DNA from: Chlamydiae bacterium RIFCSPHIGHO2_12_FULL_49_11
Lineage (GTDB): Bacteria; Chlamydiota; Chlamydiia; Chlamydiales; 2-12-FULL-49-11
Assembly: GCA_001794905.1 (NCBI GenBank)
Contig: MGLW01000034.1
Coordinates: 1 to 28,026 of the forward strand
Length of the DNA stretch: 28,026 nucleotides
Direction: 5' to 3'
Within the stretch, counting starts at the first letter, position 1, and the number at the start of each line of letters is the position of its first letter. The position numbers and the translations under genes were made by a program. The notes beneath the pieces were generated by a model. That model had not been told where the DNA came from. It ran no database searches and worked only from the letters and a program-made list of their open reading frames with translations. Shown in pieces: positions 5,601 to 20,430 of the stretch.

Positions 5601-6413
5601 GGCGGTCTCATCCCGCGCCTGGAACAGCTCATTTCGGTTCTTCCCGACGCCGGGAGCGAAACCTTCGAGCAAAATATCAGGGGCGCCATGGAACTCATCC
5701 TCAATTTTCGCGAAACGGCACGGGCCGAGCTCATGGAAATGCAGTCCAATAACCGGATCGGAATGCCGACCTGGCAAGTCCATGCAGCCAATGTAAGCGC
5801 CCTGCTGGAAAGACTTACTTTCATTGAAAAACAGTTCCGTATCCTCATCGATACTCTGCCTGAAGTGCGTGAGCTTTTTGCCTTGCTGGAACAAAAAATA
5901 GGGACCGGTATTGCAAGCGAACGTCCGGCAATCCGGGAAATGGTAAACCGGCTTGAACAGAAAGAAGAATTCATGGGAATTCCGTCTTACGTATATGATC
6001 TCAACATAATAAAAAAACGCATCCCGTGGATGGACGCTTCTTCTTCCGATGAGGAAGAAATGCACCTCACCGTCGAAGATGACCATATCGTCGGACAGGC
6101 TCCTCCCACCCCTTCTCCGACGCCTCCGGAAGCTCACGGATATGAGGATGCCGTCATCAGGACCGCAACCGAGGGCGCCCTCGAGACCTTAGGCCTCCTG
6201 AGGGAACAGGCTGCCAGCCAGTTGGAAAACATTTATTTTCACCATATCGACATGCTCGATTCCCTCTTTGAACTTCCCATCGCTCGCTTCATCCAGAACC
6301 GTATTTTAGAGGCTCTTATCTCTGAGGGAGAAGAACTTCTGGAAACACTCCAAGCCCCCTCTACGCTTCGGCTTTTTGCCGGAGTCCTCATGGAATCGTT
6401 CACTAAAAAATAA
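2664..6413 (+). CDS. Large hypothetical protein (1249 aa), helical with central hydrophobic segments; candidate effector or membrane protein
   Basis: Long uninterrupted ORF with hydrophobic stretches (e.g. FLLNVVLFVPILAMIITRVLLVAPVEIL) and an acidic/Pro-rich linker near the C-terminus. No recognisable catalytic motif. Confidence 0.85.
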   Translation: MSHFIGGLLGGGFETLVSRITEGPGQYDLFPRLKEIVDSLMAHYGAYKNCKHRFAAKHLLGFPRTDAEQQKLNRRSLKLLSDIHRLNLFFQKKLPFFEELGNKLLDTPDMPLKSLPEELSTEQRLKQSVRAVQERELSAEQIRNHVLKRLSPQEHNNVLLKYLNTLLPKKLVSKMSMRNSFTREFAQLPNLARTFLQAVEGPHDLAVIIPEKIPRRSKQAHKETKRQFFGKVNALQKFLKECEQRFPDKLKKSNTLDLLWEKVLESLYHKLGKLSTPTGVQNVPIFKLATPRFETGKKDENYPRPTGSSEVGLMISNFFRSDNALGAKIELVKTWIWIMILSNTKKTSQGGRDHTLPISEVQTVILDALRGTITMDRALKRIGELFGPDVISINNIYEFCLGAKSPAADTIDEMTKRLETLYRRYDERIPQSVTRETLEQTIDCFAGASAFSLYYQLVKGIVGTRHIRTFHAIMSPLPQDALTNREALRNAIYEGIDWTSVPFLKKIVIHLALPFFRILTNLVFHRIMNFSRSISISMVDGSLSERMPVILDKLRQVFETVKWGMVSWDEKEGVSALAKEVYLAAYFKQKPVPGIRASAITFPSHSRDTEVHSRFATALLEHYGLYFAFRQAFVDAKDSIDKALQTLPKPVRFLLNVVLFVPILAMIITRVLLVAPVEILCNFILKWIVHFFARRTSYITDFIKGRIEALSSRHRVSLLTPLEGSLLRTLRDTVSSIAEMERNAESALPVSESRYMEKMLALMSSMHMATQYFSCHSPDDVHQKKQMLTSSGWIDLLEKLLAPGLRPSIALSMGRLLESFIKPEGLQNHLATLFSSMTGSILHADKENTTEEEKVENLACMCKELKRIIYNKEVDNPAIKLQQIATFLNSHTAPLPDDVDKTALLAIGDVNLVEAGLQRWMQLHHIEDMVEPRELIEKYLRILLLYSIRLGTRKFEKPHAMDRELTLQIEKFKDLLLASGGLIPRLEQLISVLPDAGSETFEQNIRGAMELILNFRETARAELMEMQSNNRIGMPTWQVHAANVSALLERLTFIEKQFRILIDTLPEVRELFALLEQKIGTGIASERPAIREMVNRLEQKEEFMGIPSYVYDLNIIKKRIPWMDASSSDEEEMHLTVEDDHIVGQAPPTPSPTPPEAHGYEDAVIRTATEGALETLGLLREQAASQLENIYFHHIDMLDSLFELPIARFIQNRILEALISEGEELLETLQAPSTLRLFAGVLMESFTKK

Positions 6414-6495: not shown

Positions 6496-9400
6496 ATGGA
6501 TTGGCTGAAGAGAATCGGAACCGCCGTCGTTGATAGATTTTCACATACTGATCAAGAAGGAGATGTAGCTATACAATTGGCGCAGGAAACGATCCGGCAA
6601 GCGGCCGCTACATCTTCGCCGGCAAAGCCCCAAGCACAAGAAACCAACCCGTCTTCATCACAACATAAAGAAGTCCAAACGACCACATCGTCGCAGACGG
6701 CAGCGGCCCCGGCAGCACCTTTAACTATATTGGCAATACGGGTAACAAGGGTAGTCAATGCTCACTTTTTCGTAGAACCTCGGAAGTTTTCCCCTCAACT
6801 GCAGCGACCCCTCATCCGATCGTTTTTGGATAACCTGGACCTATTTTTTTCTACCATCATCCAACCAAATCGTCATAGCCAGGGAGAAATTTATTCCCAT
6901 CTCAAAAGAGTTACCGGTATATTCGATTCCCTTCTAGGAGGAATGAAACCGGAAGAAGTACTCTCCGAGATCGCAAATTACAACCGGGGAATACAGGAGC
7001 TTAAGAAATTTTTCGCAAATAGAGAACCGAAAGACGTAAAACGGTTTTTAGATTACTTGCACGAGCAAACCTCACAAGCGGATCGAAAACGTAGTCTGAC
7101 TGAATTTGAGGTAGACGATGCCTTTCTGGTCGAGTTTGACCGGCTTGAAAAGATGCGGCACGTTCTGGAAAATTTTGCAACCGAATTTCCAGAGCTGGAT
7201 CCTCAAGAAGCGATCCGAAAATTCCTCGGAAAACATAACCAACTGATCGTTGACCTATTTCAATACCAAAATATTTTGGAAGGGAAAGAAAGCAGCACGC
7301 GTGAGGAACTTTCCGGTCTGAGGTGTAGGATTGCCAAAGGAGTATATTTTGTTTCACTTTCGGCTTTGAAACAAATGCAAACTCAGGATGTGGTACAAAA
7401 CGTCCTTTCCGCAATTGATAAAGCCTGCCATGATAGCGCAGCAGCGGTGCAAAAGTCGGCAGCCGCTTTCATTCAGGACCAAATTAACAAACCACCTGAA
7501 GGGTCAGACTGCGATATTCCCCCGATCCTTAAAAGAGGACCTTCGTACGCTTTCCATCACATGCCTCACGGTACAGGTGCAAATCGCCTGGAAGAGCTCC
7601 GGAATATTTTCATCACACCCCAGGCTGCTATTTCTCCCGAGACCCTCGTTCCGATCGATGCACTCCATGAAGCGGTTAGTCGCCCCACTACACGCCAAAA
7701 GCTTCTTTCAGCTCTCGACGGGAGTCTGGCTTCTGTCCGCAAGCTCTTAAACGGCAGGTCTCCCGGTGAATATCACGAGCAGGTGCTCGCAAACGAACAG
7801 CAAATTGCAGAGCTCGAAGAAGGCATAGCAAACGAATCTATTGATTTCGATAGTCCAGATCTTCCAACACACCTCATAGGTAAAAACCCCGCGCTTCTAG
7901 ATGCGGTCAATCGGCTTCTGCTACTCCGCAAAGAGCATGAACATCTTCTCGGACATCTTTCCGCACTCTTCCCCTTTTCCGATCCTAGCGACATCTGGAA
8001 AAACATTTCTGCTCTGGGTGTATTTTACGATCTTGTTTCCCGCTACCGCACTCTCATGGATGCCACCACAACCCTGCCTATTTCGAAAGCCGACCTATTC
8101 CGGCTCAAGGAGGACTTGATCCAAACTACAGCGCGTCTTGATATAAAGAGCATTTATGCCGTTTTTGCAAAAATTCCGACCGGCAATGAGGGCTTGGCGG
8201 ACCGTCTTTATAGCTGGGGAAAAACCAAAGCAGAGGAAGCGGTGCAAAAAATGATGGATCTTCTCCCCCTTTCCTCAAAGGTAGATACCGAAATCATCGA
8301 TATCGACGCGCCCCTGATTGAAGTAATGGAAGAAGGGCACCTTCTCGACCGCCGTCCCGACGTTTCGATCGGACAACTTTTGAACCTTTTATGGAGGGCA
8401 AAAAAAGAGGGAGCCTCCGATGAGAAGAAGAAATGGGCTAAATGGGCTCTTGAACTTGCCGTGAAAAAATTCCTCCTTGAACATTCCGGAAAAGATCCAA
8501 CAGCCGATGAAAAGACGCTTAAGACGGTAAATAGCGTTCTTCACGGACTCGTGGACCAGATCTACGATATGCACTCGGAAGGGGCTCTGCCTGAGTGGAT
8601 TCATGAAAGGCTCCAGCAGTTGCACGGAACAATGCTCGATTTCAATGACCTGTTCACGACACCTCTCATTTCAATAACAGGAAGTGAAGAACCGGAAAAG
8701 CCGGATAGTCTGGAAAAAACACTCCGGCAGAATTTACAAAAATTGAAGGAGCTCAGTGCCCCGCCTGTAAACAAGACGCCTCCTTCTGCTGCGGATCTCC
8801 TCGGCGGACTGCAAGTCGCCGGCGATCTTTTCGTTTTGAAACTCGTAACCCAGTACCTTTCCGGAAGACCCGCCGATACGGACCCGATCGGAAATCTTCA
8901 CAAAGTTTTGAGTAACTCCACCCTTGATACGGGTACGGTAGTTACAAAATTTGTCAAAGAACTCAGAGAAAGCATCCGGACAAATCAACATATCGGATGG
9001 CTGCGCCGCAAAATTATTTCCGCACTCATTCCCTTTTTGTTTGGTGTCATCCACCTCATTCTTGGAGTTGTCTTTGATAGCCTTCGCAAGGCATTTCATG
9101 AAGATACCGAAAACGGGGGAGATGAAAATAAAAAAATCGAAGATAGAAAAAGTTTTTTCCTTGCCTTTTTCAACCGTTTTATCTTCTCTATGAAGGATAT
9201 TCTTCATCAATGCCCCGTCAATCGAAGCCTTACTGAATATTTTGACGAGGTGGCCGGACAGGTAGAGAAACCTCAGAGATCCGCTCCCCATATCCTTCCG
9301 TTTATGTCGACTGCCGATCTGGATGCATCTATGGTACGGCATTTTTTACAAGACTACTCGGTTCGCGTCACAATTCGAAGCATATTTGATGTTCCCATCA

Positions 9401-11271
9401 GTCATTACAAATCACTGGGCGAAAATTCGAAATTATTCAAGTTCCTTTACTACGCTCTCTCAAGCCTGAAAGTCATATTTTGGGAATATTCGATCGGGTG
9501 GGTGATAGAAACGGGACTGAACTGGCTTCTTTATAAAACGTTAGACAGAGCGCTCCATGAAACCAACATATCTGCAACGCTCATTCAAAATACGATCAAA
9601 CGAATGACAAACCAAGGCTATTCGCAAGCCGGCAATGCCCTTCAAGAGAAAATCGAACACATGCTCAAAACCGTTCAAGAGGAACTAGACGACCCAAAAC
9701 CCGGCATGGAGTATAAATCCGAAACGCTGGCGACCACCAAAAGCGCTCTTCAGGAACTTGCTTCCGTAGTACGAGATTATGAAAGAAAAAGTGCCGGAAG
9801 AGAACCTCCGCCGCCGCTTCCTCTCGGACTAGACTCCCTGAATGAAGAATTCAACGTGAAACTCCACGAAACTCTCGGAGAGACGGTAGATCAAGCCCTC
9901 GGAATCCTGTTTAAAGGAGAAAAATTCACAACCACCCTGACCGATATCTATAGTGATGCTCTGCGCAGCATTATTGACATGGATAAACCAATCGAACCGG
10001 CAACAAAAAGCAAAAACCTCCTCACAAAATGGATCAATAACATCTTTTATGCCCACGAACAAGTGACATGGACCGACACGATGCGACTGGGTGCAATGCA
10101 GGAACACCTGGAGGCGTTAAAGAAAGAATGGCAAAAAGCCGGATTGAACGACAAAGATTTTCCTAAGGAGTTCAGAGCTATTAAACAGTCAACTTCTCTT
10201 GACAAGATCCGGGAGCGGGCAGACATTGTGGCAGCAAAAGAAGGGGTTGCAAGACAAGTCTACGCTTCTCGCGTGATCCGTAACCTTCTTGATAAGATCA
10301 TCAGTACGGTCGTAAATCGCGCTCTGCGTGAAAAATTCAGTCCTCAACGGAAAAATAACGCTATCGACGCCCAAGTCAAAACCCTCAAAAGGGATCTCGA
10401 TCCTTCCTCACCCGCTTCTCTGGTGCATCGACAGATAGTTAGTAAAAAGATTAGGCATTTATACTTTCGTGCTAAGATAATTTTGGCACAAAAAACACCG
10501 GTTCAACCAGAGCAGATTCGTAATTTAAAAGTTAAAATCTGGCGAATCAATAAACAGATTCACACTTCCCAACGAATCGAGCAATACATCGCTGCCGCTC
10601 GACTTTCTCTTGAGAGTCTAGAGCAAAATGCTTCGGTAGATAAAACCTCTCTTGAGCAGCACAAGTTCCAAACAAACCTTCTCTTGAACAAACTGGCAAT
10701 GCTTGGAAAAGCCCGTGCCCACCCGATGGCTCGAGATTTTGAAAATTTCGAAGCCGCGCTCACCACCGGTAATTTACGTGCTCTTCTCACAGAATTTGTT
10801 ACAAAGCTGCAGCCTCTCTTAGAACATGAGAAGGCTATCGGAGCCGCCGGTTCTTCCGAAGGAGATGGCGGCGCCGGCGTGAGTGCAGCAAGCGGATCGT
10901 CTGCTCCGCAAGCCGGCAGTTCTTCTGAAGAAGACATTGGCACGAGGGCAGCAAGCAGATCGTCTTCTCCGGAAGTCGGCACCTCTTCCGATTTTGAGGC
11001 GGAAGAAACTCGAAACATTCCCGCACTGATAAACTCAGTCGCACAAGCTGCCCTTGCTTTAAGAGAGAGCGAAACGCACCAGTGCAACATCATCGCCCAT
11101 AGCTGGGTGATCGACACAATGGCAAATATGGCAGCTCTTGAGGCACGAAGACGGATTGAAAAGCATATCGACTTCTTCAGTAACGCACAAATTCTGCGCT
11201 TCTTGATTTCGAATGTCGAACTTGCCTACCTCAATCCGCAAAACGGGACTTATACCAATCACAAGAAATAA
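6496..11271 (+). CDS. Large hypothetical protein (1591 aa), distant paralog of 2664..6413; candidate effector
   Basis: Long ORF with SD, S/T/A/Q/P-rich N-terminus, central amphipathic/hydrophobic segments and an S/G/E-rich C-terminal linker. The final codons (YTNHKK*) run into the MITE. Confidence 0.85.
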   Translation: MDWLKRIGTAVVDRFSHTDQEGDVAIQLAQETIRQAAATSSPAKPQAQETNPSSSQHKEVQTTTSSQTAAAPAAPLTILAIRVTRVVNAHFFVEPRKFSPQLQRPLIRSFLDNLDLFFSTIIQPNRHSQGEIYSHLKRVTGIFDSLLGGMKPEEVLSEIANYNRGIQELKKFFANREPKDVKRFLDYLHEQTSQADRKRSLTEFEVDDAFLVEFDRLEKMRHVLENFATEFPELDPQEAIRKFLGKHNQLIVDLFQYQNILEGKESSTREELSGLRCRIAKGVYFVSLSALKQMQTQDVVQNVLSAIDKACHDSAAAVQKSAAAFIQDQINKPPEGSDCDIPPILKRGPSYAFHHMPHGTGANRLEELRNIFITPQAAISPETLVPIDALHEAVSRPTTRQKLLSALDGSLASVRKLLNGRSPGEYHEQVLANEQQIAELEEGIANESIDFDSPDLPTHLIGKNPALLDAVNRLLLLRKEHEHLLGHLSALFPFSDPSDIWKNISALGVFYDLVSRYRTLMDATTTLPISKADLFRLKEDLIQTTARLDIKSIYAVFAKIPTGNEGLADRLYSWGKTKAEEAVQKMMDLLPLSSKVDTEIIDIDAPLIEVMEEGHLLDRRPDVSIGQLLNLLWRAKKEGASDEKKKWAKWALELAVKKFLLEHSGKDPTADEKTLKTVNSVLHGLVDQIYDMHSEGALPEWIHERLQQLHGTMLDFNDLFTTPLISITGSEEPEKPDSLEKTLRQNLQKLKELSAPPVNKTPPSAADLLGGLQVAGDLFVLKLVTQYLSGRPADTDPIGNLHKVLSNSTLDTGTVVTKFVKELRESIRTNQHIGWLRRKIISALIPFLFGVIHLILGVVFDSLRKAFHEDTENGGDENKKIEDRKSFFLAFFNRFIFSMKDILHQCPVNRSLTEYFDEVAGQVEKPQRSAPHILPFMSTADLDASMVRHFLQDYSVRVTIRSIFDVPISHYKSLGENSKLFKFLYYALSSLKVIFWEYSIGWVIETGLNWLLYKTLDRALHETNISATLIQNTIKRMTNQGYSQAGNALQEKIEHMLKTVQEELDDPKPGMEYKSETLATTKSALQELASVVRDYERKSAGREPPPPLPLGLDSLNEEFNVKLHETLGETVDQALGILFKGEKFTTTLTDIYSDALRSIIDMDKPIEPATKSKNLLTKWINNIFYAHEQVTWTDTMRLGAMQEHLEALKKEWQKAGLNDKDFPKEFRAIKQSTSLDKIRERADIVAAKEGVARQVYASRVIRNLLDKIISTVVNRALREKFSPQRKNNAIDAQVKTLKRDLDPSSPASLVHRQIVSKKIRHLYFRAKIILAQKTPVQPEQIRNLKVKIWRINKQIHTSQRIEQYIAAARLSLESLEQNASVDKTSLEQHKFQTNLLLNKLAMLGKARAHPMARDFENFEAALTTGNLRALLTEFVTKLQPLLEHEKAIGAAGSSEGDGGAGVSAASGSSAPQAGSSSEEDIGTRAASRSSSPEVGTSSDFEAEETRNIPALINSVAQAALALRESETHQCNIIAHSWVIDTMANMAALEARRRIEKHIDFFSNAQILRFLISNVELAYLNPQNGTYTNHKK

Positions 11272-11412
11272 ATTCACAATTTGAGCACTTTTTACCTGCG
11301 GCCATTGGCTTCGCTCGGGCCAACTTTATTCAAGTTTGATCCCTCGCTCCAGCCTTCAGTCCTCGGAAAAAAAATCATCTCAAATTTATGAATTTCTTTC
11401 ATGCGTTTGGTA
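11253..11412 (+). mobile_element. MITE-like fold-back element, family A, copy 1 (160 bp)
   Basis: ~34-bp imperfect TIRs TACCAATCACAAGAAATAAATTCAC.../...ATGAATTTCTTTCATGCGTTTGGTA, flanked by TTA at 11250-52 and 11413-15. Near-identical to 17152..17310. Confidence 0.85.
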
Positions 11413-11544
11413 TTAACCTCTAGAATAACTTCTGGAGCTTCTTTTTTGCTGCTCGTCTTTTTTACCGTTATCTTGTTTGTTGCAAGACACAAATCCTGCG
11501 ATGCTAAATACTGTAAGCATCAAAAATATGATGGTTTTTTTCAT
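11413..11544 (-). CDS. Small putative lipoprotein (43 aa) MKKTIIFLMLTVFSIAGFVSCNKQDNGKKDEQQKRSSRSYSRG
   Basis: Manual translation. AAGGA SD, basic N-terminus, hydrophobic core, lipobox-like FVS-C21. Below the ORF-track length cutoff. Confidence 0.7.
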   Translation of the reverse strand: MKKTIIFLMLTVFSIAGFVSCNKQDNGKKDEQQKRSSRSYSRG

Positions 11545-11557
11545 AATTATTTCCTTT

Positions 11558-11683
11558 TTATTTTAAATTAATCACACATGAACAGCCGCGTTTTTGTTTG
11601 CATGGCTTTTCGTCATTACTTCCACAAGCACTCAACATCATGAGTCCCGTGAGGAGCATTAATGCAGGTAACATTTTTTTCAT
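11558..11683 (-). CDS. Small putative Cys-containing lipoprotein (41 aa) MKKMLPALMLLTGLMMLSACGSNDEKPCKQKRGCSCVINLK
   Basis: Manual translation. Strong SD (GGAGG) and canonical lipobox LSA-C20. Below the ORF-track length cutoff. Confidence 0.78.
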   Translation of the reverse strand: MKKMLPALMLLTGLMMLSACGSNDEKPCKQKRGCSCVINLK

Positions 11684-11709
11684 AATACCCTCCCTCGATT
11701 TCAAGCCCA

Positions 11710-11737
11710 ACTATATTTTCCTGCTTTTTTTTTGCAA
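11710..11737 (-). promoter_or_regulatory. Putative promoter of the two-lipoprotein operon
   Basis: TTGCAA-16 bp-TATAGT on the minus strand, upstream of the SD and ATG 11683. Confidence 0.5.
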
Positions 11738-11776
11738 GAAAGAGAAGTAAAATAAAAGAAACCGCATGGAAAAAAA

Positions 11777-12871
11777 ATGAAACCTACTCTATTTCTGGGA
11801 GCTACAAACCAGCATGAAGGCAAGACAACATGCTCTCTCGGCATCCTAGCAGGCCTTTTCGGGCGGGTGAAAAACCCTGGTTTTTTCAAACCTGTGGGAC
11901 AAAACCACTTAGAGGTTGAACCGGGCGTTTTTGCCGATAAAGATGTTCCCCTCTTCCGTGACAGATTTGATCTTACTGATCCTTACCATCTTATGAGCCC
12001 AGTGTTATTCACACGCCATTTTTCCCGAGACTATCTGAACGGGAAATTCCAGAGCGGCCCGATTTTGGATACGATCCGAACAGCATTCGATACATTGTCC
12101 GAGCACCATGATTTTATGCTTGTCGAAGGGACGGGCCACATGGGGGTTGGGAGTATCTGCGGCATTGATAATGCGACGATTGCCGCACTTTTGGGAGCAA
12201 AAATCGTCCTCGTTACGTCGGGAGGGGTCGGGTCATGCTATGATAAACTGATGCTCAACCTGGCCCTCACGGAAAAAAAGGGGGGAAAGGTGGGCGGAGT
12301 CATTATTAATAAGGTAATCCCTTCCAAGATGGAAATGGTACGAGACTATATGGGCCGTGCCCTCAAGCGGTTGGGAATCCCTCTCGTCGGACTTCTTCCT
12401 TATGACCAAACGCTCACCCTCCTCACTTTTGAGGATTTACTCACCCTCTTTCATCGGAATCCGCTTTCCGGTGGAGAGTACAACAGTCGCATATTCAAAA
12501 CGATCCGTCTCGTTGCTACCTCGCGGGAAATATTCGAACAAACCATCCGCAAACAAGAGCTCATCATCACTCCGGCAACCCGCGAAGATATTATCCTGGC
12601 AGCCCTCAAAGCCGAGCTGAAAGAAAGGTTGCACGGAACGAGTCTTGAAACCGGATTCATTTTCACCGGCAGCGTTCCCCTTTCTCCCACGATGGCAAAA
12701 GAGCTTGAGAATGTCGCTATTCCGGCTTTTTTTACCGGCGAGAACACTTTTGCCTGCATGAAAAAAATCACGGCGCACACATCCAAAATCCGGATCAAAG
12801 ACCGGGGGAAAATCGAAGAAGCGATTTCTCTTGTCCGGGCCAACATCGACTTCGACTTATTGCTTAACTGA
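11777..12871 (+). CDS. AAA_26 (BioD-like P-loop) + DRTGG domain protein, similar to the phosphotransacetylase N-terminal region
   Basis: ATNQHEGKTT P-loop, FFKPVG, LVEGTGH, GVIINKV and the DRTGG-like LIITPATREDIIL. No PTA catalytic domain. Confidence 0.8.
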   Translation: MKPTLFLGATNQHEGKTTCSLGILAGLFGRVKNPGFFKPVGQNHLEVEPGVFADKDVPLFRDRFDLTDPYHLMSPVLFTRHFSRDYLNGKFQSGPILDTIRTAFDTLSEHHDFMLVEGTGHMGVGSICGIDNATIAALLGAKIVLVTSGGVGSCYDKLMLNLALTEKKGGKVGGVIINKVIPSKMEMVRDYMGRALKRLGIPLVGLLPYDQTLTLLTFEDLLTLFHRNPLSGGEYNSRIFKTIRLVATSREIFEQTIRKQELIITPATREDIILAALKAELKERLHGTSLETGFIFTGSVPLSPTMAKELENVAIPAFFTGENTFACMKKITAHTSKIRIKDRGKIEEAISLVRANIDFDLLLN

Positions 12872-13844
12872 TCAATTGTGAAAGAGATTCTATAATCCGG
12901 TTCGGGTGGATCGGATTCATGACCCCCTTCTTCCGGATGCGATGAAAACGATCGGACGAGAGTCCATAGCGCCGGCGGCTTTCTTCGTAGACGTCGATGG
13001 CGTAGTGTTGCTGCAGGTAAGGACCTGAAGCGTGGGACGAAGTTGCGCCGAAAAGAGAAATTACCGGTACTCCCAAGTTATTTGCGATATGGATCGGTCC
13101 CGAATCGGGAGCGACCACGCACGCCGCCCGTTTGATGATTGCGAAAAGCTGCATGAGATCGGTCTTGCCGGCAAGAAATATAACATTTTTCACTTTAGCA
13201 TACATGTTCTCAAACCGGCGATCGAATGCGGAGTTTCCACCACAAACCACGATGGGAACCTCTTCAAACCGTTCGAAAATATCGATGTAACGTTCAAAAG
13301 GGTAATTTTTTTCCCTTTGGCGGGAAACGGGGCAAAACACAAGATACCGGGGCGGTAAATTTGTTTCCACCCAAGGCAGGGCATCGAGGCGGAGCGTATC
13401 CATATCCAGTCTGGAGAGGTTTTCCTGTTTTAACATGCGCGCAATACTCAGGTACCCTTCCATCAAGTGGTTTTTGAGAAACGGGACCGTCTCGTCCACA
13501 AAAAACCTGTGCCCTTCTTTTCCGCGGATCGAATCGAACCCGATTTTTTTTCCTTTGAGCTGCATGGCCGCAAGGTGAGCGGAAGAGCTGGCCTGCGCCA
13601 CAAAGACAAAGTCGTAACTTAGATGGGAAAACATCCGTTTTAACTTCCAAAAGCCCTGCAATGAGCGTACTTTATCCACCCCCACCACCTTCACATTTTC
13701 GGGAAGGTTCCACAGTTCACTAAACCCGCGGTCGGTAATCCAGTCGATCGTCACCTCGGGATTATGGCGCGCGAGGTGTTTTACGACGGAAGAGGCCATC
13801 ACCACGTCACCGAGAGCAGACAATCTAAGAAAAGCAACGTGCAT
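12864..13844 (-). CDS. Glycosyltransferase family 9 (LPS heptosyltransferase-like)
   Basis: RLSALGDVV N-terminal motif, LAGKTDL, DSGPIHIA and VISLFG. Confidence 0.88.
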   Translation of the reverse strand: MHVAFLRLSALGDVVMASSVVKHLARHNPEVTIDWITDRGFSELWNLPENVKVVGVDKVRSLQGFWKLKRMFSHLSYDFVFVAQASSSAHLAAMQLKGKKIGFDSIRGKEGHRFFVDETVPFLKNHLMEGYLSIARMLKQENLSRLDMDTLRLDALPWVETNLPPRYLVFCPVSRQREKNYPFERYIDIFERFEEVPIVVCGGNSAFDRRFENMYAKVKNVIFLAGKTDLMQLFAIIKRAACVVAPDSGPIHIANNLGVPVISLFGATSSHASGPYLQQHYAIDVYEESRRRYGLSSDRFHRIRKKGVMNPIHPNRIIESLSQLIS

Positions 13845-14625
13845 CGAATATCTCCAAAAACGCTTCCGGGACGGGCGCCGTAAATTTCATTTCCTCGCCG
13901 GTAAACGGGTGGGGAAAGGAGAGGGAAAAACTGTGAAGCATCATGCGAGATCCTTCATGAATGCCGTAGATCGCATCGCCGAGAATCGGAAGATGAATAA
14001 GAGCCAAATGGAGGCGAATTTGATGGGTTTTCCCGGTGAGCGGGGTAGCTTTTACTAGGGCCAAGCGGCCACTCACTGCGACAACTTCCCCCTCGGTGAC
14101 CGCAAGGGCTCCATGGGGATCAATAGTCATGATTTTACGCCCTTTACGTTCATGGGCCACTTTGATCCGTTTCCGGACATCCACTTTTGCCCCCGGCCGG
14201 AACGGCTTTTGCATCACACACACGGCAAAATATGTTTTCGAAACAAGACGCTCACGGAAAAGAGCTATCCACGGTGCCGGATCCCCTTTTGCCATCATAA
14301 TCACTCCGCTTGTTTCTTTATCGAGCCGATGAACGGTAAATCGGGAATCGACGGGCACAAACGGCGGCTTGTCAAATACGATCATCCGCTCGTCTTCGTA
14401 CAAAACGGTCCATGTCCCTTTACGCTCCAAAGCTTTTTCATCGAAAGCGACCCGATCCCCTTCCCGGAGTTTATGGGAGGCAAACGTTTCGATCCTTCCA
14501 TTCACACGGCAAGCTTTCTCGTCGATCGCCCGCTTGAGCCTTTTTTTCGAAATATCCATGCGTTCTGATAAAAACCGGATTAAGCTGCTCCCATCATCGC
14601 AGCCGGCAGCCAGAAACTCACGCAC
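13825..14625 (-). CDS. RluA-family RNA pseudouridine synthase with an S4-like N-terminus
   Basis: VHRLDKETSG catalytic motif, TGKTHQIRLHL, PILGDAIYG and LHS; GTG start. Confidence 0.92.
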   Translation of the reverse strand: MREFLAAGCDDGSSLIRFLSERMDISKKRLKRAIDEKACRVNGRIETFASHKLREGDRVAFDEKALERKGTWTVLYEDERMIVFDKPPFVPVDSRFTVHRLDKETSGVIMMAKGDPAPWIALFRERLVSKTYFAVCVMQKPFRPGAKVDVRKRIKVAHERKGRKIMTIDPHGALAVTEGEVVAVSGRLALVKATPLTGKTHQIRLHLALIHLPILGDAIYGIHEGSRMMLHSFSLSFPHPFTGEEMKFTAPVPEAFLEIFDARCFS

Positions 14626-15060
14626 TTAAAAGGGAATTTCCTCTTCTGAAAAAATGTCGTCTTCGGCTTTGAAGCTGTCTTCTGCCGCGTTAGGCTTGCC
14701 GTAGCTCCGAGCATTTGTGCCTGCCTCCTCGCCACCGGCCCCTTTCGGTTTCCCGAACGGACTGAACGAGAGCGAAGTTGCCGTCATATTCACAGACACT
14801 TGAGACTTGCCTTCTTTGTCGGTATAAATCTCCGGTTTGGCCCAGCTGCCCATGGCAAGGACGGGGCTTCCTTTTTTCAGGTGCTGGATCATGTGGTCGA
14901 GGTTGTCTCCCCAGACGGTGACGCGGACCCACATCGTCTCTTCCTTTTGCCCTTTTCTCTGATTGCATGCAACGACCAGCGTCGTCACTTTTGTTCCGTT
15001 CGAGGTGAACCGAACTTCGGGATCGCGGCCGAGATGCCCTGCAATGATTGTATGATTCAT
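14626..15060 (-). CDS. ssb: Single-stranded DNA-binding protein
   Basis: GHLGRDPEVRF OB-fold start and acidic tail EEEIPF; AAAGGAG SD before ATG 15060. Confidence 0.95.
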   Translation of the reverse strand: MNHTIIAGHLGRDPEVRFTSNGTKVTTLVVACNQRKGQKEETMWVRVTVWGDNLDHMIQHLKKGSPVLAMGSWAKPEIYTDKEGKSQVSVNMTATSLSFSPFGKPKGAGGEEAGTNARSYGKPNAAEDSFKAEDDIFSEEEIPF

Positions 15061-15154
15061 ACACACTCCTTTTCAATATGATGAACGCAATTCTAAAACA
15101 AACCCAAATTGATGGATAGACAAAAATGGAGCCTTCCCTTATAGATGAATTCAT

Positions 15155-16987
15155 ATGGCCGACTTTTTTAAAGAAAAAAATGAGTATCCTTCCAAGAAAT
15201 TGAGCGATCCTGCCGAAAGTTCCCTCGAGCTTTCGGGCGATGCCGGTTTTTTTACGACCCCCAAAAGCCGCAGGTCCAAAACCGAATTCCACGATCCGTT
15301 TTCCGACCCCAACCTTTTCCTTGCCAAAAAAATCAAATTGCAAATGTTGCAATCGGACACAACCGAATGGTCGCGTAAAATTGAAACGCATGTGATCGCC
15401 GCCATTTTGCCCGAATTCACGCGCAAATTTCCCTCGTACAAGCTGGGCATCAATATCATCAAAAAAACGTGGCAAAAAGTGGCCTATTACCTGGGCCAGA
15501 TCGAGAAAAAACACCAGGCGCTAAATCCCAACGGAACGTTGCACCTTCCCTTCATTATCAGGGAAAACCTCCGTTTTCTCCTTGAAAAACAGTCTGACCG
15601 TGTAGTACACCCGCTTGGTCTCGCCCATCAACTCGCCCTCAAAGTGTCCGACTGCATAGCCACTCTTGACGGAGAATTCGTCCCGCTCGGCGAGCTCACC
15701 GGACAAATCACCCTCTTACAACGCCATCTCATTCCCAAAGAAGAGATTTCAAAACCCTATTTGCAAGACCACTATACCGAACTGGACAAATGGATTGTCG
15801 AAGTGCAGCTTGAGCTCATCAACGACCATCCCAACCTCTCGGCTTCCCTTTTGCGTGAGGCGGTTGAAGAGCACATCCAGAAAACCGTTTCCCTTGCGAG
15901 CGTAAAAAATCTCACCTTGAGCGCCTTTGCCCTTACGGCTTATCAACTGTACCCATCGACCTCCTTTCACAACTTCAGTACGAGCGACAAAAATCGACTC
16001 CTCGGGTTCATCCGTTCAGAGGTGCGAGAGAAGTTAGAACCGAATTTTAATGAAAGGCACGTTTTCCAGTTCATCCGTAAAATCCTTTTCCTGGCGAAGA
16101 TCAGCCAAAAGATGGACAAAAACCTCGCACAAAATCAGCTTGAAGCTGCTCTCCATTATGTTTTTTCCCTCTCGACAGATTGTCTCGACACCACCATGCC
16201 GACAATCCAGGAAGAAGTGTATGAGCTCATCCAACAGGAACTTGTCACTCTCAAAGAAAAGAAAATCGAGCAAAACATTCCTCATGCAGTTGCCGCCCTA
16301 CTCGACTCTTTTGAAGAGATTGAAAATGAGCCCCTCCTCGGAAAGATCCTACAGGAAGACTTGGAGATTGTGATTTGGAAAGTACTTGAGGAAGAAAAAG
16401 GATTTATTTCCGGTCTTTCTTCTCCCAAACAGGAAATATTGCAGCGCCTCATTGCGCGGGAAATTTTCCATTCGAAAATGCCTTCCCTATCGGAGGCGGT
16501 ACGGGAAGTTTGCATCAAGCTAAAAAAACGCAGCAAAATCGGAACCGAAAAACTCGCAGCACGCTCGCACCTGTGGTCGATTCAAAACGATCTTCCCTAC
16601 GGATGGATCCACCTCGACACACGCGACAAGTATTATGCTTTCATCAAAAAATGCGTCAAAGAAACTCCCGGCCTCACTTTTGCCGAAATTGCAAGGGAAT
16701 CCTCGTACAAATATGTCAAACTCCACTCCTCTCTCCATCCGTGGAGAGAAGAATTGGAAAAATATTTCCTCTTTTTGCTCAAATACATGTGGTACAATGA
16801 AAACCGCTCTTCCCACTCCTCTACTTTCGAGAGGCTGATCCTCTGGCATGAACATGAACTTCTCAGCCATCGGCAAGCCATGTTTCCGGATCTTGTGCAA
16901 AGCACCCTCATCGACACGCTCAAAAACCTCGTCCCCTACCTTCCCGTCGAAGAAAGCCACGTCACCTCAGTCATCCAACCTACCTAA
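15155..16987 (+). CDS. Hypothetical protein (610 aa, helical)
   Basis: Long ORF divergent from ssb with no recognisable motif. Its TAA stop is the left duplication of MITE B1. Confidence 0.85.
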   Translation: MADFFKEKNEYPSKKLSDPAESSLELSGDAGFFTTPKSRRSKTEFHDPFSDPNLFLAKKIKLQMLQSDTTEWSRKIETHVIAAILPEFTRKFPSYKLGINIIKKTWQKVAYYLGQIEKKHQALNPNGTLHLPFIIRENLRFLLEKQSDRVVHPLGLAHQLALKVSDCIATLDGEFVPLGELTGQITLLQRHLIPKEEISKPYLQDHYTELDKWIVEVQLELINDHPNLSASLLREAVEEHIQKTVSLASVKNLTLSAFALTAYQLYPSTSFHNFSTSDKNRLLGFIRSEVREKLEPNFNERHVFQFIRKILFLAKISQKMDKNLAQNQLEAALHYVFSLSTDCLDTTMPTIQEEVYELIQQELVTLKEKKIEQNIPHAVAALLDSFEEIENEPLLGKILQEDLEIVIWKVLEEEKGFISGLSSPKQEILQRLIAREIFHSKMPSLSEAVREVCIKLKKRSKIGTEKLAARSHLWSIQNDLPYGWIHLDTRDKYYAFIKKCVKETPGLTFAEIARESSYKYVKLHSSLHPWREELEKYFLFLLKYMWYNENRSSHSSTFERLILWHEHELLSHRQAMFPDLVQSTLIDTLKNLVPYLPVEESHVTSVIQPT

Positions 16988-17148
16988 TACCAAATGCAAG
17001 AAATAATGTGATAAAGTCGGGTCAGATAACGAGGCAAATTTGCACGATCATTTCGAAACCCATATTTTTAAATATGAGTGAGAAAGGATCGTACAAAGGG
17101 GACCGTTAGATGATCCCGAATTTATGACATTATTTTTTGCGTTTGGTA
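16988..17148 (+). mobile_element. MITE-like fold-back element, family B, copy 1 (161 bp)
   Basis: TIRs TACCAAATGCAAGAAATAATGT.../...ACATTATTTTTTGCGTTTGGTA, flanked by TAA at 16985-87 and 17149-51. Reverse complement of 19299..19459 with 2 mismatches by manual comparison. Confidence 0.87.
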
Positions 17149-17151
17149 TAA

Positions 17152-17310
17152 TACCAATCCCGAGAAATAAATTCACAATTTGAGTACTTTTTACCTGCGG
17201 CCATTGGCTTCGCCCGGGCCAACTTTATTCAAGTTTGATCCCTCGCTCCAGCCTTCAGTCCTCGGCAAAAAATCATCTCAAATTTATGAATTTATTTCTT
17301 GTGATTGGTA
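17152..17310 (+). mobile_element. MITE-like fold-back element, family A, copy 2 (159 bp)
   Basis: About 10 differences from 11253..11412 by manual count. Flanked by TAA at 17149-51 and 17311-13, in tandem with B1. Confidence 0.87.
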
Positions 17311-17313
17311 TAA

Positions 17314-18339
17314 TTATAACATGGTACACAATACTGTGGACGGAGGGGAAGGGGACTGATAATTTCCATCAAACAGCTTCATGATCTCTATCCGGTTCTG
17401 TAAAGGGTAACGCTCCGCCATATGTCGTCTTGCCTCGTCTCTTGGGGTGCACCCGTTTGCATTTCTCCTTTCCAAGGAAGCGGAAATTGCCGCTAAATTC
17501 ATCAAATATTCAGCCGCTGCCAGCCGCGAATGGATAACGGCATAGTGGAGCGGCGTATTACCAAAAACGTCATGTGTATTTATACTCGCACGGTGTTCTA
17601 CAAGTAGTTTCACTCCTTCAAGGTAGCCCGACCTTGTTGCATAGTGCAAGGGTGTTTGTTTGTAACGATTTTCATGATCGAGCAACTCGTAGCCTTCCTT
17701 ACATAAAAGCTGCTGCAATACCCCATCCGGATTTGTTCCCGCCATCGCGGTATGGAATACCGAATCGCCCTGAGCGGTGAGAGCTTTGAGTGATTTCATT
17801 GCACCGGTTTGCAATAAGCATTCCACGACCCCTCTGCCTCCTCGGAGGGCCGCATGATGGAGCGGAGTATAACCGTCTTCATCCGCTGCATTGACAACAC
17901 GAGACATACCCACAGAACAACTTCTGTCAAAATTCAGAATGTTTATTACCGCCTTTATGATGCGAACATCCGTATCTCGGCTTAAACAATGAATGAGCGT
18001 TACGCCGCTCACCTTTTCTTGAAAGAAAAGGGGCTTGCTGAGGGTCAGCGCATTGAACGCTTTCTTGTTGAGCAGAGTCAAAACCATCTGACTATTTACT
18101 CTTGCAATTTCGTTAAGGTAGCGATGGGCAATCTCGTAAACAACTGCCGTAAGCCCAGGAAGATCCTCCGGCTTGGTTGCCTTTTCAAGCCACCTTATCA
18201 CCCCTTCCACATCATCCCGAATAAAATCTCGATAAAACCCGACTTCTTCCAGATTGACGGGACCGCGACTGCATGTAAGCCCGAATGCACATTCCATAGA
18301 TCCTCCTGAGGATTCATTAACGGAATGATAAGGTAACAC
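17314..18339 (-). CDS. Ankyrin-repeat protein with a C-terminal CaaX-like motif (CTML); candidate host-targeted effector
   Basis: Repeats GYTPLHHAA, KQTPLHYAT and GNTPLHYAV plus degenerate ones; ends ...STVLCTML*. Start uncertain (GTG 18339 or ATG 18297). Confidence 0.88.
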   Translation of the reverse strand: MLPYHSVNESSGGSMECAFGLTCSRGPVNLEEVGFYRDFIRDDVEGVIRWLEKATKPEDLPGLTAVVYEIAHRYLNEIARVNSQMVLTLLNKKAFNALTLSKPLFFQEKVSGVTLIHCLSRDTDVRIIKAVINILNFDRSCSVGMSRVVNAADEDGYTPLHHAALRGGRGVVECLLQTGAMKSLKALTAQGDSVFHTAMAGTNPDGVLQQLLCKEGYELLDHENRYKQTPLHYATRSGYLEGVKLLVEHRASINTHDVFGNTPLHYAVIHSRLAAAEYLMNLAAISASLERRNANGCTPRDEARRHMAERYPLQNRIEIMKLFDGNYQSPSPPSTVLCTML

Positions 18340-18411
18340 AAAAAAATTGTCGAGTTGAATTTAAAATACTCATAAATTGGTATTACCATTGTAATTTCAT
18401 GTGTTTACTCT

Positions 18412-19269
18412 CTACTTTAGAAGAGCGGTGCGGCGTCTTTGAACAAGGAGGGCGATCCCGAGGAGGACCATTGGGATGCTGAGATATTGCCCCATCAGAA
18501 GGCTCTGTGCCGAGAGCCACACGCTCTGCTCGGTTTTAATGAATTCGATGCAGAACCGGAACGTGAAAGCCAGAATAAGTCCGATGCTGAAAAGTTGCCC
18601 TTCGGCCCAGGATCGGTAAAATTTTCTCCATAGTAAAAAGAGAAAAGCGGCAAGCAGAATGTAGAAGAGCGATTCGTAGAGCTGCACCGGATGACGGGGT
18701 AAGATCCCCGCATCGTCACGCGGCCGGAGAAAGAGGACAGAAAAGAGACCATTGTAAGGGACGCCCAAAATTTCCTGGTTGATGAAATTGCCCACCCGAA
18801 TAAAACTGCACACCATCATTGTAGGAATCGAAACAAGGTCCATGAGTCCAAAAAAACGGACCGGTGCTAATTCCTTTTTACGGAAGGTGTAAAAAAGAAA
18901 TACGGCAACGATGAGCCCCAGCACGCCTCCATGACTCGCAAGCCCCCCTTCCCATACCTGAAAAATGCGGAGCGGCTCGGATACATATTCGGACACATTT
19001 TCATAAAAAAGGATATGAAATAGCCGCGACCCCACTACAGCACCAATGATGGCATACACGAGCAAACTATCGGACAGGGCGCGCGCCTTATATTTCAACT
19101 CCGAAGGGGCAAGATTTAAACGGAAAGCGAGCGTTTGCCGGAGGAGCCGGCCAAATAGAAAAAGTCCGAGGTAAAACCCGACTGCGAAAAGGAAACCATA
19201 CCAGCTGATCGGCCATTCGACTTTAGGAATCGTAAAAATAAACGGGGACGGATCCCACACCAGCGCCAT
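18412..19269 (-). CDS. lgt: Prolipoprotein diacylglyceryl transferase
   Basis: WYG, GSRLFH, WEGGLASHGG, RVGNFINQE, RHPVQLYE and MGQYLS motifs. Start set at ATG 19269; the ATG at 19323 lies inside the MITE. Confidence 0.95.
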   Translation of the reverse strand: MALVWDPSPFIFTIPKVEWPISWYGFLFAVGFYLGLFLFGRLLRQTLAFRLNLAPSELKYKARALSDSLLVYAIIGAVVGSRLFHILFYENVSEYVSEPLRIFQVWEGGLASHGGVLGLIVAVFLFYTFRKKELAPVRFFGLMDLVSIPTMMVCSFIRVGNFINQEILGVPYNGLFSVLFLRPRDDAGILPRHPVQLYESLFYILLAAFLFLLWRKFYRSWAEGQLFSIGLILAFTFRFCIEFIKTEQSVWLSAQSLLMGQYLSIPMVLLGIALLVQRRRTALLK

Positions 19270-19298
19270 GAGAACTATGGTATCAAAAATCGTCTTTA

Positions 19299-19459
19299 TA
19301 CCAAACGCAAAAAATAATGTCATAAATTCGGGATCATCTAACGGTCACCTTTGTACGATCCTTTCTCACTCATATTTAAAAATATGGGTTTCGAAATGAT
19401 CGTGCAAATTTGCCTCGTTATCTGACCCGACTTTATGACATTATTTCTTGCATTTGGTA
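19299..19459 (-). mobile_element. MITE-like fold-back element, family B, copy 2 (161 bp, inverted relative to copy 1)
   Basis: Reverse complement of 16988..17148, flanked by TTA at 19296-98 and 19460-62, between the divergent lgt and PIN/TRAM genes. Confidence 0.87.
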
Positions 19460-19473
19460 TTATTTACCAGAAA

Positions 19474-19502
19474 TGGACAAAAAAAACATCTCTCGATACA
19501 CT
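19474..19502 (+). promoter_or_regulatory. Putative native promoter of PIN/TRAM-acpS
   Basis: TGGACA-17 bp-TACACT, 13 nt upstream of ATG 19516. Confidence 0.5.
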
Positions 19503-19515
19503 GGCTCGTGTCAGT

Positions 19516-20430
19516 ATGAAAAACGGATTTGTCTTTTTCGTCTTAACTATGTCGGCTTCCCTGCTGACGGCTCTCTTTGTGGCAGCTGCCTATCGCATGC
19601 CCCGCTTTATAAATGCTATAACCCTCTCGGGCCTAGGTCTCATTATCTCGGCATTCGTGTTCACTGCTTTCGAAAAAGCTTTTTCCGTTATGGCTTCCCT
19701 TCCTTATTCTTTTTTTCTTTTTTATTGTGTTTCCCTTTTTGTTTTCACCGCCCTCTTCCGTTTAAAAAAAGGGTTGAAAATGACTTTTCCCTTTTTTGAA
19801 CTTGACAATCGCAAGAGCCATTCCAATAAAATATTACTTCATCCGAGCGCCCTCGACGACGAGCGTCTCATCGATTTTATCAATACCGGTATCCTGAGCG
19901 GACGATTTGTTGTGATCCGTGAACTCGAAAGCAGTTTGATGCAGCAAGCCATCCTTTATCCCGACAGTGAAGATGTGCACCGGCGGCGTCTTGCTGTATT
20001 GAAAAAGATCTTGCACATTCCGGAGCTGGAACTGGTGAGTATGGCTAGCAAAGGTCCTCCGGGCATCGATCTCCTTTACCAGCACCTTCTCTTTGCCGCG
20101 GAAAACCGGATGGATCTTCTCGCTTCCGATTTGCTCGACCTTGCCGATACCGAAGGGAAAAATGTCCGGGTCATCAGCCTGAATCAATTAGCAGGGGCAA
20201 TGAAACCGCTCCTCTCCACCGGAAAAACAGTCTCCGTCAAAGTACAAAGGCCCGGCAAGGAACAAAGACAAGGGATCGGCTACCTCGAAGACGGTTCGAT
20301 GGTGGTCATCAACGACGGCGCCGATTATATAGGGGCAACCCTGGATGTGAGCGTGATTTCGGTCAAACACTCGTCCACGGGGCGCATCATTTTCACAAGC
20401 CCCGTTTTAAAAGCAGCATTGAGGGCATAA
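19516..20430 (+). CDS. Membrane-anchored PIN/TRAM domain protein (YacL-like)
   Basis: N-terminal TM helices and a C-terminal TRAM motif GKEQRQGIGYLEDGSMVV...TGRIIF. Start set at ATG 19516; the ATG at 19435 lies inside the MITE. Confidence 0.85.
   Translation: MKNGFVFFVLTMSASLLTALFVAAAYRMPRFINAITLSGLGLIISAFVFTAFEKAFSVMASLPYSFFLFYCVSLFVFTALFRLKKGLKMTFPFFELDNRKSHSNKILLHPSALDDERLIDFINTGILSGRFVVIRELESSLMQQAILYPDSEDVHRRRLAVLKKILHIPELELVSMASKGPPGIDLLYQHLLFAAENRMDLLASDLLDLADTEGKNVRVISLNQLAGAMKPLLSTGKTVSVKVQRPGKEQRQGIGYLEDGSMVVINDGADYIGATLDVSVISVKHSSTGRIIFTSPVLKAALRA

Follow-up and report, generated by a model that had tools for sequence, protein, structure and literature searches.

Results

Four fold-back elements with common ends

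Which transposase moves short non-coding elements that carry a triplet duplication, and why does each of them fold back over its whole length? The question is raised by four elements in a contig of Chlamydiae bacterium RIFCSPHIGHO2_12_FULL_49_11 (GenBank MGLW01000034.1, positions 1 to 28,026; "the window" means this whole stretch of 28,026 nucleotides). All four begin with TACCAA, end with TTGGTA, measure 159-161 bp and stand between duplicated triplets; they belong to two families, A and B. [quoted passage not shown] The elements, which an earlier sequence-only reading had placed at the same positions with the same ends and the triplets TTA, TAA, TAA and TTA, are as follows.

11253-11412, + strand: MITE A1, 160 bp; TTA on both flanks (11250-11252 and 11413-11415)
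16988-17148, + strand: MITE B1, 161 bp, a whole-length fold-back, + being the purine-rich strand; duplications TAA at 16985-16987 (left) and 17149-17151 (right)
17055-17081, + strand: apical core of B, with GAA (17055-17057) opposite GA (17080-17081) as the internal loop that closes the apical stem
17152-17310, + strand: MITE A2, 159 bp; TAA at 17149-17151 (left) and 17311-17313 (right)
19299-19459, - strand: MITE B2, 161 bp, inverted with respect to B1; TTA at 19296-19298 and 19460-19462

B1 and B2 differ at 2 positions, as read before, and A1 and A2 are 93.75% identical. The fold-back structure was borne out by fold z-scores of -12.4 for B1 and -4.2 for the + strand of A1; the minus strand of A1 is purine-rich and stabler (-57 vs -40 kcal/mol on the + strand). 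The TAA at 17149-17151 is common to B1 (right) and A2 (left), so that one of the two went in at the duplication of the other. The view that these are non-autonomous elements with shared ends, and that the window holds no transposase, was supported.

Copies in the source genome

The genome holding the window (1.26 Mb, 71 contigs, 82% complete) was searched by BLAST and with a profile built from eight element ends. We obtained 15 complete copies on 8 contigs, all non-coding and with inverted terminal repeats: 10 complete B, 4 near-complete A and one 69-bp element consisting of two ends. In addition, incomplete copies were found where contigs C39 and C17 end, along with several solo ends, which adjoin host genes. 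At a score of at least 20 bits the profile detected 38 sites in this genome and 0 in a locally shuffled version of it, and the flanking triplets, far from being random, are identical in 13 of the 15 complete copies (6 TTA, 6 TAA, 1 TCA; permutation p 3e-5); both results argue that the elements did not arise by chance. Since one copy on contig C36 is flanked by TCA on both sides, the triplet is T-N-A and not strictly TWA. The three-base duplication of the sequence-only reading therefore stands and its restriction to TAA/TTA does not, with 12 of the 13 matching triplets being TWA.

Within family B, copies B1-B4 differ at 1-4 sites and B6-B10 within 7, B6 and B7 are identical, and one copy is intermediate; between these subfamilies both arms change in blocks. 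Rfam 15 at the gathering score gave no match over the elements (best relaxed match 21 bits vs a 211-bit cut-off), so no known non-coding RNA family was matched, and a BLAST comparison of B1 with plasmids gave no match either. An empty site for the four window copies was not found: in 4 of 7 listed runs, compared over 10600-20400, no joint skips an element, all contigs break at repeats, and the sole listed joint, with a 22-base side, was disregarded.

Several further observations concern the arrangement of the copies. Close inverted pairs account for six of the 10 B copies, at distances of 2.1, 1.7 and 0.84 kb (window 16988-19459; C54 12021-14034; C41 15243-16406). The pair B1/B2 encloses A2, an ankyrin-repeat gene and lgt, and an inversion between B1 and B2 would keep the triplets the same. 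The 69-bp element (C20:73069-73137), two ends without a core, has TAA on each side and lies where a 545-aa frame has its stop codon. Two solo ends (C5:18098 and C20:82853) directly adjoin TAGGGCGTGTC, a motif at the edge of an IS5-type transposase fragment in locus L080, and may be read as nested relics of a second element family. In the window, the AT-rich spacer from the ankyrin-repeat gene to lgt (18340-18411) has TTGGTA and then TTA, perhaps what is left of an element end after decay, under the profile cut-off.

The partner transposase

The end pattern is present in 73 of 401 genomes of the order, compared with 0 for the reversed control. In three of them (G019, G242, G269) ends about 1.15 kb apart bound two open reading frames (ORFs) with HTH_33/HTH_23 and DDE_3 domains, both of which match NF033545 (IS630). 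These partner elements of 1-1.2 kb carry the transposase in two frames; joined by a -1 shift at a run of A, the frames yield a protein of 351 aa in which all three acidic motifs (WFQD, ILD, NPTE) are present, and the gene terminates inside the terminal repeat. A fourth, internally shortened IS630 copy (G355) has ends that match those of the window at 26-27 of 30 bases by eye; for the comparison of window ends with insertion sequence (IS) ends the figure is 22-25 of 30. In another genome rich in family B (G228) an IS630 transposase lies beside B copies, and the IS end is the same as the B end over 22 bases.

A three-base TWA duplication had suggested a PIF/Harbinger- or IS5-type transposase, and the duplications are indeed mostly TWA. 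However, all four gene-bearing elements located by their ends alone encode an IS630 transposase, and a domain search detected neither DDE_Tnp_4 nor DDE_Tnp_1 in the source genome. Of the 64 listed ORFs that lie inward of 36 unpaired ends we scanned 28, leaving aside repeats, ORFs scanned before and most of the short frames that overlap others. IS5-type DDE domains within 1.5 kb of an end were present in 2 of the 28 (loci L080 and L088), but at each locus the TACC end is followed immediately inward by an IS630 C-terminus, the IS5-type gene being an element of its own. This assignment is already largely refuted, and we regard it as highly improbable.

A three-base target duplication in an IS630 clade

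Relatives of the IS630 transposase were collected at 85 loci (80 plus 5 plasmid regions), several of which are copies from one genome, so that the loci do not each stand for a lineage of its own. Represented among them are chlamydiae, Polaromonas, Noviherbaspirillum, a Methylococcales genome, Shewanella, Psychromonas, Vibrio, Aeromonas and Desulforhopalus. A TACC...GGTA pair was obtained at 60 of the 85 loci, and the triplets on both sides were identical in 51 of these pairs (TTA 23, TAA 19, TGA 6, TCA 3); shuffling left against right gave a mean of 20 and a maximum of 34. Moreover, two TACT-ended IS630 copies of the clade lie inside B elements of G228 and, compared with the intact B consensus, duplicate TAA and TTA, respectively. 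Sequence alone fits a 3-bp duplication with TACC ends and a 1-bp one with ATACC ends alike, and TA is duplicated in neither case. An IS630 clade found across several phyla duplicates T-N-A and not the usual TA.

A TA duplication with CCAA ends was also considered and rejected; it would need the same triplet on each side by chance, and filled/empty pairs show one triplet. Plasmid records label the relatives only as 'IS630 family transposase'. A bacterial IS630 group with T-N-A was not found in the literature, a search that did not cover ISfinder, so that named members with a 3-bp duplication may be on record there.

The interior of family B is conserved as a fold on one strand

The B-core pattern occurs in 18 of the 401 genomes, which belong to several families (control 0), with 0 to ~198 matches per genome, the highest number in G228. 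Among 46 distinct complete B copies (7 from the source genome, 10 from G228), 38 are 161 bp long and 33 have matching triplets. The ends vary widely among genomes, yet both arms change together. In an alignment of 31 copies, 49 of 60 pairs have changed on both sides, more than in all 500 shuffles and all slid controls, and 93% of the cells pair compared with 37-44% for slid partners. All 31 copies, without exception, have G68 and A94 (element numbering), which belong to the GAA/GA internal loop.

For the analysis of strand bias we used 25 of the 161-bp copies (near-duplicates dropped by eye, oriented by homology, position i paired with 162-i), whose mean identity is 65% (52-94%). Mismatches were G-T in 131 cases and A-C in 29 (41 vs 4 columns), purine-purine in 183 and pyrimidine-pyrimidine in 39, and the stabler fold was on the same strand in 25 of 25 copies. 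The ends of 32 distinct autonomous IS elements, used as a control, showed no bias (G-T vs A-C 42:44), nor did single-copy mutations in G228 (9:9). The mismatch bias towards one strand in the MITEs, its lack in the IS ends and the conserved purine loops together point towards selection on a single-stranded fold. The interior is not neutral filler: over a sequence divergence of one third it retains a length of ~160 bp, the pairing of the arms and purine internal loops, and the hairpin fold is held on one strand across distant genomes, a fold that simple passengers should not need.

Two observations touch the history of single copies. Neighbouring B copies in G228 (L055:219-697) are flanked by TAA/TTA and TTA/TAA, which is what a recombinational inversion of the intervening 157 bp would produce. 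A different fold-back of ~160 bp with CCCC-type ends (L066:1104-1265, genome G081) scores 41.8 bits with the B-core model (L063:2026-2121, 31.2), a score which hints that B-like interiors may also travel with other ends.

Family A, a third core type and element length

Full-length relatives of family A with 70-75% identity were found in three genomes (G385, G226, G248). In more distant A-type cores, linked as a chain, a GGA/GA loop is invariant and 34 of 54 pairs covary; at the A-type ends G-T exceeds A-C by 18 to 5. Homology between the A and B cores was not detected in pairwise core comparisons (z -0.7 to 2.2), and the B-core covariance model at E 5 missed A1 and A2, while some A-type cores scored 20-25 bits, no better than generic hairpins. 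The claim that the two cores are unrelated thus held for their sequence and failed for length, strand bias and loop architecture, which are alike in both. Elements with a third type of core, whose ends and length are as in A and B (L073:1504-1663, L079:1377-1535, L084:1504-1662), are near-perfect hairpins with little strand bias.

A length of 158-162 bp is shown by 54 of 63 distinct short elements bounded by such ends; this set is enriched by the A and B queries, and several cores found by their ends alone are also ~160 bp. Shorter elements of 69, 93 and 151 bp with intact duplications exist, and those without a core indicate that the core is not always needed for insertion.

Insertion sites and adjoining genes

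The window elements lie at the ends of genes or between them, and their ends, joined to the triplet, form extended -10 boxes to which family B is predicted to add a near-consensus -35 at 17 nt. The following features are concerned.

6496-11271, + strand: ORF of 1591 aa, no Pfam match; A1 lies within its former stop codon
15155-16987, + strand: ORF of 610 aa, no Pfam match; its stop codon is the left TAA of B1
17124-17152, + strand: promoter-like site of the B1 end plus duplication (ATGACA, 17 nt, TG-extended TATAAT; 11/12), facing into A2; consensus match only
17314-18339, - strand: ankyrin-repeat gene, whose stop abuts the right TAA of A2
19435-19463, + strand: promoter-like site of the B2 end plus duplication (ATGACA, 17 nt, TATTAT; 10/12), facing the TRAM-domain gene; consensus match only

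The final residues of the 1591-aa ORF are read from the A1 end, and after removal of A1 in silico the ORF stops 1 base past the target triplet. B2 is located between the divergent genes lgt (-) and the TRAM-domain gene (+); its other end has a promoter-like match to the consensus, ATGACA-17-TATAAA, toward lgt, and its two ends add in-frame ATGs (19323, 19435) that extend the called ORFs.

In G228, 800 kb contain 84 B loci, 44 of them complete with 22 on each strand. Twenty-two of the 44 complete copies lie between convergent genes, a setting found at 106 of 610 junctions; where genes run in tandem, the stable strand coincided with the sense strand in 13 of 17 cases (p 0.049). Conserved neighbours of the B copies in this genome were not found. 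On C1 of this genome (600-1000 kb and 1800-2200 kb), an IS630 element had gone into a B element or immediately next to one in 3 of 7 inspected cases, and elements there stack on common triplets like B1 and A2 of the window.

Elsewhere in the window, a first ORF (91-1587) resembles by eye the UvrA C-terminus, an ORF of 1249 aa (2664-6413) has no Pfam match, and the 1591-aa ORF includes a Ser/Ala-rich repeat near 10876-10991.

1481-1579: small signal recognition particle RNA (RF00169), 54.9 bits; overlaps the 3' end of the first ORF

Discussion

How the elements may move and why they fold

The IS630 transposase would have been supplied in trans by a copy since lost or unassembled. It would bind both ends, excise the element and insert it into AT-rich DNA at TNA, often where a gene ends; we place high confidence in such cut-and-paste in trans. 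The selected single-stranded fold would most likely be RNA. We propose that it is selected as such because copies persist where read-through transcripts form a stable rod, and that arm-to-arm copying changes both ends together, to which we give about even odds. By such copying an old core could acquire the ends of whichever IS630 resides in the genome.

Several observations weigh against this explanation. Matching triplets are lacking in 2 of the 15 copies of the source genome (A4 with a decayed left end, B8 with TCA/TTA), in 8 of 44 copies in G228, in 13 of the 46 mixed B copies and in 9 of the 60 IS pairs, and 25 of the 85 IS loci gave no end pair, many of them being cut by contig ends. The likeness to the IS is limited to the terminal ~30 bp, so that a simple internal-deletion origin is without support. 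The search for a transposase bounded by such ends succeeded in related genomes, but tblastn and DDE_3 searches found no IS630 transposase in the source genome, which is 82% complete in 71 contigs. Recent movement, which had been suggested by the close match of B1 and B2, is accordingly plausible in view of the few differences among the B copies but unproven, with neither an empty site nor a transposase found in this genome and with recombination able to homogenise nearby inverted copies. The copies are related, so that column counts overstate independence; the excess of G-T over A-C is as compatible with a DNA hairpin as with RNA; the sense bias, which comes from a crude ORF caller, is marginal; and for half of the G228 copies, located between convergent genes, either strand may be transcribed. 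Shared and single variants in G228 did not differ significantly (12:5 vs 9:9 distinct events, p 0.31), and this comparison was dropped as a sign of a fold selected for spread.

Alternative explanations of the fold

The same IS630 MITEs might owe their fold to mobilisation itself, if a single-stranded DNA hairpin at the replication fork, or the element RNA, serves the transposase or a host factor as substrate or recruits it, and good folders spread. A fixed length over sequence-unrelated cores, the invariant loop bases of B and of the A-type cores, and a strand bias in MITE ends that IS ends lack would all fit, as would the lean of inherited G228 variants to G-T (42:15 by copies), which by distinct events is not significant. 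The elements of 69, 93 and 151 bp and the near-perfect hairpins of the third core type speak against it, and IS630/Tc1 enzymes act on duplex ends; we consider it unlikely. Equally doubtful, to our mind, is the further proposal that transposition involves a ~160-nt rod with G-A-rich internal loops, an RNA or a single-stranded DNA hairpin which the IS630 transposase or a host factor would recognise, the core being an old portable module that swaps ends among successive IS630 invaders of the cross-phylum T-N-A clade.

The fold could instead be a mutational by-product, in which template switching keeps the arms complementary and, in hairpins of the stabler strand, A-C is corrected and G-T kept. 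One G228 copy with fully complementary outer arms (L055:219-379), the block-wise change of both arms between subfamilies and the existence of near-perfect hairpin families agree with such a process. Copying should, however, erase asymmetric loops, whose bases are invariant in copies of 52-94% identity, and the 13:4 sense bias is not predicted; this explanation is rather unlikely, though it carries some weight. A domesticated non-coding RNA or promoter cassette of the host, rather than mobile DNA, would account for the strong covariation, the near-consensus promoters of ends plus duplication and the position of B2 between divergent genes. It is hard to reconcile with the patchy occurrence in 18 of the 401 genomes and the variable copy number, with a duplication at each site, and with the lack of conserved neighbours and of an Rfam family, and it is very unlikely.

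Significance

Target duplications serve to assign orphan MITEs to transposase families, and 3-bp TWA is normally taken as PIF/Harbinger/IS5; since here it belongs to a widespread IS630 clade, the TWA rule misassigns. The T-N-A clade also offers a Tc1/mariner-type enzyme with a different target chemistry for study. For the open question of why bacterial MITEs are whole-length hairpins the family provides a clean test set, with diverged copies, a measurable strand bias, unbiased parent IS ends as an internal control and close transposase relatives in cultured bacteria. In small-genome chlamydiae, the ends together with the duplication place promoter-like sites and start codons next to host genes and alter stop codons there.

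Comparison with known systems

The partner elements resemble the IS630 family (NF033545, DDE_3) in their ~1.1-1.2 kb, a helix-turn-helix plus DDE domain, two frames and a frameshift on an A run, and differ by T-N-A in place of the usual TA duplication. PIF/Harbinger Tourist MITEs and IS5-family MITEs are like A and B in the TWA-like 3-bp duplication and differ in the transposase family. A TWA duplication is also known from Zator of the eukaryotic IS630-Tc1-mariner group. A paper on Shewanella mobile elements is said to describe an IS630-linked MITE.

Long-hairpin MITEs moved by IS630 are already known, among them ERIC/MITEPlu5, RUP and Orientia mISOt2 (PMC6267812, PMC2229807, PMC2575882), and IS630-type elements and their MITEs have been described with TA duplications (PMC6267812, PMC2229807). 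ERIC, MITEEc1 and MITEPlu5 are short, non-coding and strongly folded over their whole length, with ends like a subset of IS630 elements (PMC6267812), in all of which A and B are similar; RNA-level effects on neighbouring transcripts have been reported for this group (PMC2229807). As described, ERIC/MITEPlu5 are set apart by 123-127 bp, CCC-type ends and TA (PMC6267812), compared with 159-161 bp, TACC ends and T-N-A for A and B; no Rfam family matched these, and no plasmid matched B1. RUP of Streptococcus pneumoniae has been ascribed to IS630-Spn1 by end similarity (PMC2229807), and the ends of Correia/NEMIS elements of Neisseria bear sigma-70-like promoters (PMC10969869), a likeness to the A/B ends, where promoters are predicted; MITEs other than Correia have been reported with promoters of this sort as well (PMC10969869). 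RUP and Correia/NEMIS differ by TA targets, by a restriction to one genus each and by lengths of 107 or ~155 bp, and no report of a single core that bears different ends in different host families was found in the literature. A literature search likewise found no description of chlamydial MITEs of this sort; the main text of a prokaryote-wide MITE census does not name them, though its supplements may list these sequences (bioRxiv 2024.01.18.576219). Most pogo Fot elements of the IS630-Tc1-mariner group have TAA duplications (PMC7386202) and provide a precedent for three bases, although they are eukaryotic, unlike the bacterial clade described here. Taken together, the T-N-A clade and the controlled strand bias are what goes beyond the literature found.

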